A stretch of DNA of 44,051 nucleotides from Escherichia phage Rao1, in sequence record PQ221054. The stretch is one strand, 5' to 3'. The notes under the pieces are model-generated. The model had not been told where the DNA came from, did not search any database, and worked only from the letters and a program-made list of their open reading frames with translations. Made by a program: the position numbers and the translations under genes. Below, in pieces: positions 3,090 to 3,110 of the stretch (the first letter of the stretch is position 1; every line of letters starts with the position of its first letter).

Positions 3090-3110
3090 AAATAGCGCAA
3101 TCGCTACTTA
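3090..3110 (+). promoter_or_regulatory. Conserved box copy P3 (AAATAGCGCAATCGCTACTT), orphan copy without a properly spaced -10, 8 nt upstream of the tRNA
   Basis: Box-like sequence read directly; no TATAAT-like hexamer at 22 bp. Confidence 0.4.

Follow-up and report, generated by a model that had tools for sequence, protein, structure and literature searches.

A stem-loop in a tRNA-Arg leader and a conserved inverted box at the tail-fibre promoter of Escherichia phage Rao1

Two sites in the genome of Escherichia phage Rao1 (sequence record PQ221054), one just before a tRNA gene at 3090-3110 and the other at 31474-31494, were read in an initial annotation as copies of a repeated box that lack the -10 hexamer usually found downstream of it. 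This raises the question of whether such sites belong to the box family at all and, if they do, what a box without a -10 might be doing there. The window, that is, the whole stretch of 44,051 nucleotides analysed here, is the complete or near-complete genome of an Rtp/T1-like E. coli siphophage (Drexlerviridae, Braunvirinae) with a GC content of 43.7%. Its identity with phage CY1, of the genus Christensenvirus in the same subfamily, is 96.7%, and that with ACG-M12 is about 79%.

The box, ATAGCACnnnTTGnTAAA, is a repeat previously described in T1-like phages. The TLS genome paper reported 21 copies of a direct repeat, aaATAGCACnnnTTGnTAAAA, co-directional with transcription and also present in T1, Rtp and Rogue1, and left its function open, suggesting a stoperator, an enhancer site or an UP-like element (PMC11447400). 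In the window, the consensus ATAGCACnAATTGCTAAA is matched 14 times with up to three mismatches, against 0.19 matches expected. We also scored the window with a PWM trained on 80 distinct boxes, all of them taken from the genomes of five relatives. This relatives-only PWM finds 16 window sites at 16 bits or above, with a background of at most 8.4 bits, and two intermediate intragenic sites (14.3 and 11.9 bits) that fall outside this background. In a canonical unit, the box copy is followed by a spacer, a TATAAT-like hexamer, the conserved leader motif CATCGAAACGA, a Shine-Dalgarno sequence and the start codon. With the -10 defined as a hexamer nAnnnT (A second, T last), 86 of the 106 box units from six genomes have it 20 nt from the box, 13 have it at 21 nt and the other 7 at 19 nt, which shows that the box is a substitute for the -35 element at a fixed distance from the -10. 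The window boxes are like the TLS repeats in that they are of the same sequence family, number about 16-23 copies per genome, are intergenic and stand co-directionally 5' of start codons. They differ in two features that were not reported for TLS, namely the fixed 20-nt distance to the -10 and the match to the marbox discussed below (PMC11447400).

The box contains the pseudo-palindrome TAGCA-N5-TGCTA. Its conservation is asymmetric, with A1, C7, T11, A17 and A18 kept in 91-98% of copies and C14, the palindromic partner of G4, in just 66%. Several familiar promoter elements were considered for the box and rejected. A sigma54 promoter is excluded by direct reading, given that the box has AG-N8-GC and not GG-N10-GC and that a -10 follows. 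The TTGCTA within the box does not serve as a -35 hexamer, as its spacer would be 22 nt and thus too long. The MotA box of phage T4 is TGCTT near -30; TTGCTAAA in the phage box lies at -40 to -33, and this identification was rejected on position.

Against this family, the site at 3090-3110 (AAATAGCGCAATCGCTACTTA) is not a box. It had been described as a box copy 8 nt 5' of the tRNA and counted as one of two -10-less members among 16 boxes. The context is essentially as described, with the site ending 7 nt 5' of the tRNA-Arg gene (anticodon CCU, 3118-3193, plus strand; identified by ARAGORN and by Rfam tRNA at 59.3 bits), but the box identity is not upheld. The best ungapped PWM score is -19.8 bits, a value equalled or bettered by 2.5% of all positions. 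When a 1-nt gap is allowed, the score becomes about 10 bits, which is at chance level, with about 7 loci per simulated 44-kb genome reaching the same. The half-sites of the site, TAGCG and CGCTA, stand one base closer than those in the TAGCA-N5-TGCTA of the box. The expectation that neither of the two sites would be a plus-strand promoter proved correct, and no -10-like hexamer occurs 19-21 nt 3' of either.

What the 3090-3110 sequence does form is an RNA stem-loop (3087-3112, plus strand), with an inner stem TAGCG/CGCTA, a CAAT loop and an outer stem TTTAA/TTAAA. Phages IMM-001 and ES keep the stem-loop, and in ES one T-A pair of the outer stem is replaced by C-G, a compensatory change. A stem-loop in IME542 matches it in shape, but its inner stem is a different one, CTAG/CTAG. 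Folding gives -6.5 kcal/mol for the window sequence, -10.1 for IMM-001, -11.5 for ES and -7.6 for IME542, with z-scores of -2.6 to -4.8. Pairing at 3087-3112 is therefore kept despite sequence change across four lineages, represented by just four distinct sequences. The initial annotation had proposed a comparison of both loci with those of related phages, and at the tRNA locus this comparison speaks against a box, which is found there in no other relative. Neither the box nor the 3090-3110 sequence stands before the tRNA of Rtp, Veterinaerplatzvirus, Msk, IME253, DTL and CEB_EC3a, the relatives' tRNA at this locus being tRNA-Arg(UCU). The 3090-3110 hairpin sits in a lineage-specific segment, so that a recombination junction, one of the origins first suggested, is conceivable there.

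The tRNA appears to have a promoter of its own about 200 nt upstream, on which the initial annotation was silent. It is a box-less promoter of the sigma70 type (2893-2921, plus strand), with the -35 TTGCAT at 2893-2898, a 17-nt spacer and the -10 TAGTAT at 2916-2921, and the start site of the tRNA transcript is predicted near 2928-2929. The pattern TTG[AC][AC][AT]-17-TAnnnT occurs at the same place in all 10 of the 10 loci with sufficient upstream sequence; the form at the tRNA loci is TTGCAT-17-TAnnAT about 200 nt upstream, and in ES it is TTGACA-17-TACATT. The support for this promoter is its conservation, because it is too weak for a generic promoter scanner. The scanner that we used requires a -35 match and so missed both the tRNA promoter and the extended -10 of the tail-fibre gene described below. 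The transcript would begin with a structured 5' leader of the tRNA-Arg precursor of about 190 nt (2929-3117, plus strand), recognised by a conserved 5' domain, covariation and the global fold. Braunvirinae share the 5' domain, in which 5 base pairs covary, and the hairpins of the leader are present in the global fold. An Rfam search around the tRNA found the tRNA alone and no family for the leader.

Based on the chance-level score, the structure kept in relatives and the shared promoter and leader, we conclude that 3090-3110 is a chance look-alike of the box, and that it is an RNA stem-loop at the 3' end of the pre-tRNA leader, conserved by structure. That the site could instead be a diverged yet functional box, acting as a protein-binding site before the tRNA, is extremely unlikely. 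With one gap it does have 17 of 21 bases in common with the box variant at 39040 (read directly), but the gapped score does not rise above chance, the 1-bp shorter spacing throws the half-sites out of register, the relatives keep the pairing rather than the sequence, and none of the others has a box at this locus.

The leader and the tRNA-Arg would be transcribed together from the box-less sigma70 promoter at 2893-2921. Precursors of tRNAs are processed by RNase P or RNase E, and the 3087-3112 stem-loop with its AU-rich flank abuts the RNase P site; a role in 5' processing, or in separating the leader from the tRNA, is probable. Of the roles first suggested for 3090-3110, RNA processing would fit a structured element of the pre-tRNA leader beside the RNase P cleavage site, but not a box copy. 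The tRNA cluster of phage T4, with its species 1 and 2 RNAs, provides an example of phage tRNA precursors that contain structured non-tRNA RNAs. The likeness is that a phage tRNA shares its transcript with a structured, seemingly stable RNA, from which RNase P frees it. The window differs in having a single tRNA with a 190-nt leader, and the two systems are likened by description and not by sequence.

The other site is a genuine box. It occupies 31476-31493 (ATAGCACTAATTGATAAA, plus strand) and scores 26.3 bits with the PWM, ranking 11 of 16. Its earlier description as a box without a properly spaced -10 is borne out: no hexamer of the nAnnnT form is found 18-22 nt 3' of the box, and all 106 scored units in the six genomes have one at 19-21 nt. 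In each of the six genomes, the box at this locus is the sole high-scoring box at a conserved locus without a -10. The orientation rule of the family, tested as a box co-directional with a start codon and about 60-80 nt 5' of it, does not hold here either. There is no plus-strand gene downstream; the box is inverted relative to the minus-strand gene for the lateral tail fibre and lies 22 nt from its ATG. Compared with the TLS repeats, then, 31476-31493 breaks the orientation rule and is without a -10, and 3090-3110 is not a member. The tail-fibre gene (29958-31454, minus strand; from the ORF list) codes for 498 aa, with its ATG at 31454 and a Shine-Dalgarno sequence GGAG at 31466-31463, and carries a tail-fibre annotation in CY1, Rtp (rtp50) and further relatives.

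The comparison with related phages has the opposite outcome here to that at the tRNA, as a box is present at the same locus across several genera. It is found in CY1, Rtp, Veterinaerplatzvirus, Msk and TH21 (Nouzillyvirus), and in 12 of 16 IMG/VR loci retrieved with the N-terminus of the tail-fibre protein; the distant relatives ESCO41 and phiEB49 are included among the carriers. Across genera whose proteins are about 50% identical, all the high-information positions of this box are kept and its score ranges from 19 to 30 bits. The box is absent in Rogunavirus-type relatives (L018-L020), in Webervirus and in phage Vc1, and is therefore dispensable in some lineages. The RNA of 31476-31493 has a fold of 0 kcal/mol on either strand, and an RNA hairpin at this site was rejected. 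A replication-origin signal near 31.5 kb was also considered and rejected, the GC skew there just tracking gene orientation.

The initial annotation placed a hairpin at 31520-31545 after the box and no plus-strand gene downstream. Both observations stand, the hairpin being at 31524-31541, but its minus-strand nature was missed: it is part of the intrinsic terminator of the DNA primase gene (31514-31541, minus strand), which has a stem-loop at 31541-31524 followed by a minus-strand T-run. The terminator scan gave 7 pairs, 4 of them G-C, with the minus-strand tail TTTTATTGCC, and relatives keep the terminator too. Read on the plus strand, the hairpin is followed by TTAGTTTAGT and is no terminator. 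The primase gene itself (31540-32463, minus strand; from the ORF list and the relatives' annotation) lies 5' of this terminator on the transcribed strand.

Between the terminator hairpin and the box there is a further conserved element that had not been described, a predicted extended -10 promoter of the lateral tail-fibre gene on the minus strand (31498-31506, TGGTAGAAT), consisting of TG at 31506-31505, a G, and TAGAAT at 31503-31498. In alignments of this region between the primase terminator and the tail-fibre start codon, the six specified bases of TGnTAnAnT (T, G, T, A, A and T) are the same at all 15 loci, two box-less loci included, and the n positions vary. Judged from the aligned sequences, this invariance is the signature of an extended -10 promoter. 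The spacer between the hexamer and the inverted box is always 4 bp, and its sequence drifts (GAAT, CCAA, GCGC, TGAT, TTAT, GCAC). With initiation 7 nt after the hexamer, the tail-fibre start site is predicted near 31490-31491, within the inverted box. Because the box is inverted and always 4 bp 3' of the extended -10, it covers this start site, spanning about -2 to +16 of the promoter with its centre near +7, and so overlaps the -10 to +20 region that we took to define an operator position. The fixed geometry relative to a conserved extended -10 gives the site the anatomy of an operator on the tail-fibre promoter. Of the functions first proposed, protein binding would fit this genuine box in operator position. 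The recombination junction on the same list finds no support here, the locus and its fixed geometry being kept across genera. We conclude that 31476-31493 is a genuine conserved box that is unused as a promoter element.

Overall, the explanation that we favour, and regard as probable, is that 3090-3110 is the leader stem-loop and that the inverted box at 31476-31493 acts as an operator on the tail-fibre promoter. Going by position alone, the inverted box most likely lowers rather than raises tail-fibre expression. The protein that would activate the approximately 15 canonical promoters from near -40 would also occupy the inverted box near +7. Bound over the tail-fibre start site, it would stand in the way of open-complex formation or of promoter escape, and would also block polymerases reading through the primase terminator. 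The tail-fibre gene would thereby be held down. This proposal has its difficulties. The same factor would activate other structural-gene promoters yet repress one, and an extra assumption such as dosage control or late titration is needed; the site is also missing in the Rogunavirus-type relatives, Webervirus and Vc1.

Repression through an activator site has a precedent in E. coli, where MarA, SoxS and Rob repress pbpG via a marbox within the core promoter. Further repressing marboxes that overlap the core promoter are reportedly found at rob, purA and hdeA. The likeness of pbpG to 31476-31493 lies in an activator site placed in the core promoter, whose occupancy hinders RNA polymerase. The pbpG marbox is located in the -35/-10 spacer, whereas the 31476-31493 box is just 3' of the extended -10, where repression is what its position suggests. 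The stoperators of mycobacteriophage L5 offer another parallel, since they too are asymmetric protein-binding repeats spread across a phage genome and able to block transcription. They differ in being bound by the repressor of a temperate phage and in acting within transcribed regions in one orientation, whereas the boxes are nearly all parts of promoters. No lysogeny repressor is evident in the window phage.

Other functions of the inverted box can be weighed against an operator on the tail-fibre promoter. The site might mainly be a roadblock or insulator, with a protein bound after the primase terminator stopping early-operon read-through into the late tail-fibre gene and the promoter itself unregulated. 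Its position 24 bp past the terminator tail on the transcribed strand would suit such a role, and a stoperator-like function was among those put forward for the repeats in the TLS genome paper (PMC11447400). But the spacing to the -10, constant at 4 bp across genera, suggests that the site is coupled to the promoter and not to the terminator, and the canonical boxes between co-directional genes show no obvious blocking, which makes this function unlikely. Still less probable is that the box is the decaying relic of a divergent promoter with no present function. The junction of the helicase and regulator genes has the same layout, a minus-strand gene there having an inverted box in its 5' UTR, and some lineages have lost the tail-fibre site; a relic, however, should hardly keep every high-information position (19-30 bits) in genera with about 50% identical proteins, or an invariant spacing to the -10 while the spacer sequence drifts.

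A weak box-dependent promoter on the plus strand, giving a short RNA or an antisense RNA to the 3' end of primase, is very unlikely. The short-RNA start put forward in the initial annotation would have to use the only plus-strand hexamers available, which lie 22 nt after the box and read CAATAA in the window and CATAAA or TATAAA in relatives. These hexamers have no T at -7, their 22-nt spacing compares with 19-21 nt in all 106 scored units, and the leader motif of the canonical units is absent. The plus-strand A-run to which they belong is the complement of the primase terminator U-tract and persists in relatives without the box. For the absence of T at -7 and the U-tract complement, a plus-strand promoter at 31476-31493 was rejected. 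We consider it extremely improbable that the site acts as RNA, as a 5' stem-loop stabilising the tail-fibre mRNA. The box has an inner inverted repeat and would occupy the extreme 5' end of the mRNA, but the window sequence is unfolded on either strand, and the conservation of the box is asymmetric and not pairwise.

If the box is occupied, the question is by which protein. The published marbox consensus is 5'-gcannwwntgnnaaa-3', for which a class II arrangement has been defined (PMC12052159). The box fits this consensus at every specified position, with 98-99% of boxes having A or T at the two W positions. Exact matches in the window number 11, against 0.99 expected, and every one of them is a box, that at 31476-31493 included. 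An older marbox consensus, AYnGCACnnWnnRYYAAA, has 18 window matches with at most one mismatch against 1.9 expected. Applied to E. coli K-12 loci, the phage PWM ranked highest the mar marbox, at 13.3 bits in a locus of 1.4 kb, and the micF marbox, at 8.6 bits in one of 351 nt; these are the very sequences present in the co-crystals of MarA and Rob.

The register also agrees. The 18-mer of micF lies 20 nt from its TAGAAT, which is the modal distance of the phage units, and the units have G4 at -47, G13 at -38 and A16-18 at -35 to -33. In the cryo-EM structure of Rob, RNA polymerase and micF, a single Rob contacts G-47 and A-45 of GCAC, G-38, T-37 and the A/T pairs at -35 and -34, and takes the place of the contact of sigma region 4 with the -35 element (PMC9178005). 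The phage boxes are like class II marbox/robbox promoters such as micF in having GCAnnWWnTGnnAAA in forward orientation, 20 nt to the -10 and no -35 hexamer, with the G of GCAC at -47 and AAA at -35 to -33 in both. They are unlike them in belonging to a phage genome, with about 16 per 44 kb, in the additional conservation of A1, T2, A3, T11 and T12, and in that Rob, MarA and SoxS are here candidate binders. The canonical units thus show the class II register, forward and overlapping -35 as at micF, but 31476-31493 does not, as it has no -10.

The exact marbox match and the class II register of Rob at micF make the host proteins Rob, MarA and SoxS candidate binders of the box. They are the most economical candidates, and we offer them as a lead, not a result; that one of them is the binder is tentative. 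No MarA homologue encoded by the phages was found when a MarA/SoxS/Rob-N profile was compared with six-frame translations of the six genomes (best E-value 0.15), and Pfam gave no AraC match among 10 proteins. A Keio screen with the T1-like (TLS-like) phage LL5 showed no requirement for rob, marA or soxS, though it used single knock-outs and a threshold of about 20-fold in plating efficiency, so that this threshold and redundancy of the three genes limit its reach (PMC7229145). The supplement of this screen does not mention rob, marA or soxS. The same box units are found in phage Vc1, whose annotated host is Vibrio cholerae, and in a Klebsiella Webervirus. The presence of the units in these two phages speaks against a host factor, as does the fact that a Cro-type regulator of the phage is far more conserved than its other proteins. 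Literature searches found no link between Drexlerviridae and Rob, MarA or SoxS, and the marbox identity of the box family is unreported as far as the searchable literature shows.

This Cro-type HTH regulator (32504-32986, minus strand; 160 aa, T1 gp23/Rtp52 family) is a candidate phage-encoded binder of the box. It matches Pfam P22_Cro at 1e-5, under the family cutoff, and PHROG 2856, and its structure model (pLDDT 87) has Cro proteins as best fold matches. Were it the binder in place of Rob, MarA or SoxS, which is possible though doubtful, 31476-31493 would be its operator on the tail-fibre promoter, 3' of its own operon. The window and TH21 forms of the regulator are 84% identical, compared with 44-52% for primase, helicase, capsid and terminase, which parallels the invariance of the box, and members of its family occur in 824 Drexlerviridae records. 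The -10 of its operon does not depend on a box, the pseudo-palindrome TAGCA-N5-TGCTA would suit a Cro dimer, and the sharing of the box with the Vibrio phage Vc1 and the lack of rob, marA or soxS among the genes of the Keio screen (PMC7229145) also favour a phage protein. On the other hand, the conservation of the box is asymmetric (66% for C14 against 91-98% elsewhere), and the recognition helix of the HTH varies (SNQAVSEW, SIQVVQQW, CCVRLTNAY) among phages with identical boxes. Furthermore, a separate array of true palindromes, TTGCA-N5-TGCAA at 43931-44022, would be a better target for a Cro dimer. Weighing the evidence for and against a host factor, we hold Rob, MarA or SoxS to be a tentative choice and the regulator a possible one, with the remainder left to other binders. 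The broader proposal, that all transcription of T1-like phages (Drexlerviridae) runs on class II marbox promoters via host Rob, MarA or SoxS and that the inverted tail-fibre box is the one repressed place, is speculative and in our view doubtful.

The two sites are unrelated: 3090-3110 is an ordinary look-alike, and 31476-31493 is a real conserved exception in a known repeat family. The look-alike serves as a caution that short palindromic sequences should be scored before they are counted as family members. To our knowledge, T1, a classical phage, encodes neither an RNA polymerase nor a sigma factor, and sigma70 promoters can be recognised in it at very few places. How its transcription is controlled is still to be explained, and the repeated box is part of this puzzle. 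Nothing distinguishes the box from a marbox in the Rob-micF register, and its fixed distance to the -10 together with this likeness makes the question of the binder directly testable, with the one conserved box in operator position as a built-in negative-control case. The same box may explain how a late gene embedded in an early region is kept in check. If host Rob, MarA or SoxS did bind the boxes, tail-fibre synthesis would be tied to the availability of a host factor, for example via its titration by replicating phage DNA.

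A conserved promoter without a box, TTGCAT-17-TAGTAT (2893-2921), with a -35-like hexamer at the standard spacing of 17 nt, is the predicted driver of tRNA-Arg (3118-3193), and it probably also drives the downstream DUF3667 gene (3210-3392). Between this promoter and the tRNA lies a structured leader RNA of about 190 nt (2929-3117), which is kept across the Braunvirinae. Covariation was found at five pairs, all of them in the 5' domain, and the middle of the leader is a site of lineage-specific insertions; no Rfam family matched the leader. The leader could be a stable small RNA that is freed by RNase P. 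The window shares the anticodon CCU of this tRNA with CY1, IMM-001 and ES, whereas the same locus in the Rtp-like relatives (L002-L005) has UCU.

Boxes were scored in bits with a weight matrix trained on the boxes of relatives only, on which genuine boxes of the window reach at least 16 bits. Two intragenic box-like sites, both on the minus strand, gave intermediate scores: 14.3 bits at 36560-36577 and 11.9 bits at 32519-32536. The latter, which has a -10 and lies inside the regulator gene (32504-32986 (-)), may be a weak primase promoter; at the matching position relatives have a strong box instead. High-scoring boxes lacking a -10 are also present in Vibrio phage Vc1, at 24337 (+) and 20469 (-) (29.5 and 30.8 bits), one of them antisense within the tail-fibre gene. 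At the primase/tail-fibre junction, where the window carries an inverted box without a -10 (31476-31493), the Vc1 genome has no box.

Downstream of the box-linked -10s, at a distance of 4-6 nt, we found a conserved motif, CATCGAAACGA (variants ATCAACAACGA; e.g., 35539-35549), which coincides with the predicted transcript start in most box units of all genera examined, including that of Vc1. Four regions (10225-10244, 35508-35540, 42450-42490 (-) and 43066-43083 (-)) show features of two kinds: hairpins that terminate the upstream gene fall within the 20 nt that separate a box from its -10, and several -10 hexamers are located in the loops of inverted repeats. Two intergenic tracts of the window (127-201 and 27214-27264) are AT-rich and microsatellite-like, with (TATA)n followed by (TTA)n.

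The Cro-type regulator is 84% identical between the window and TH21, compared with 44-52% for other core proteins. Its N-terminal arm, DKRTxNGNNGTxRGxDKKxRKRP, is invariant and the motif GFRAxFCRPDLxFDxNGKP is conserved; in contrast, the recognition helix of its HTH is variable. At the helicase/regulator junction (32999-33043), the -10s of the helicase (TATTAT (+)) and the regulator (TATAAT (-)) overlap face to face, and the inverted helicase box sits within the 5' UTR of the regulator, adjoining its Shine-Dalgarno sequence. This layout, which is shared with Rtp, Veterinaerplatzvirus, Msk and TH21, looks like a switch of mutually exclusive promoters. Four 15-bp palindromes, TTGCA-N5-TGCAA, lie at 43931-44022 (three perfect, one with a single mismatch), and no other perfect copy occurs in the window. 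At least one such palindrome is kept next to the same leftward box promoter by most relatives checked, Rtp being without it, and the four copies may serve a dimeric regulator as an operator array.
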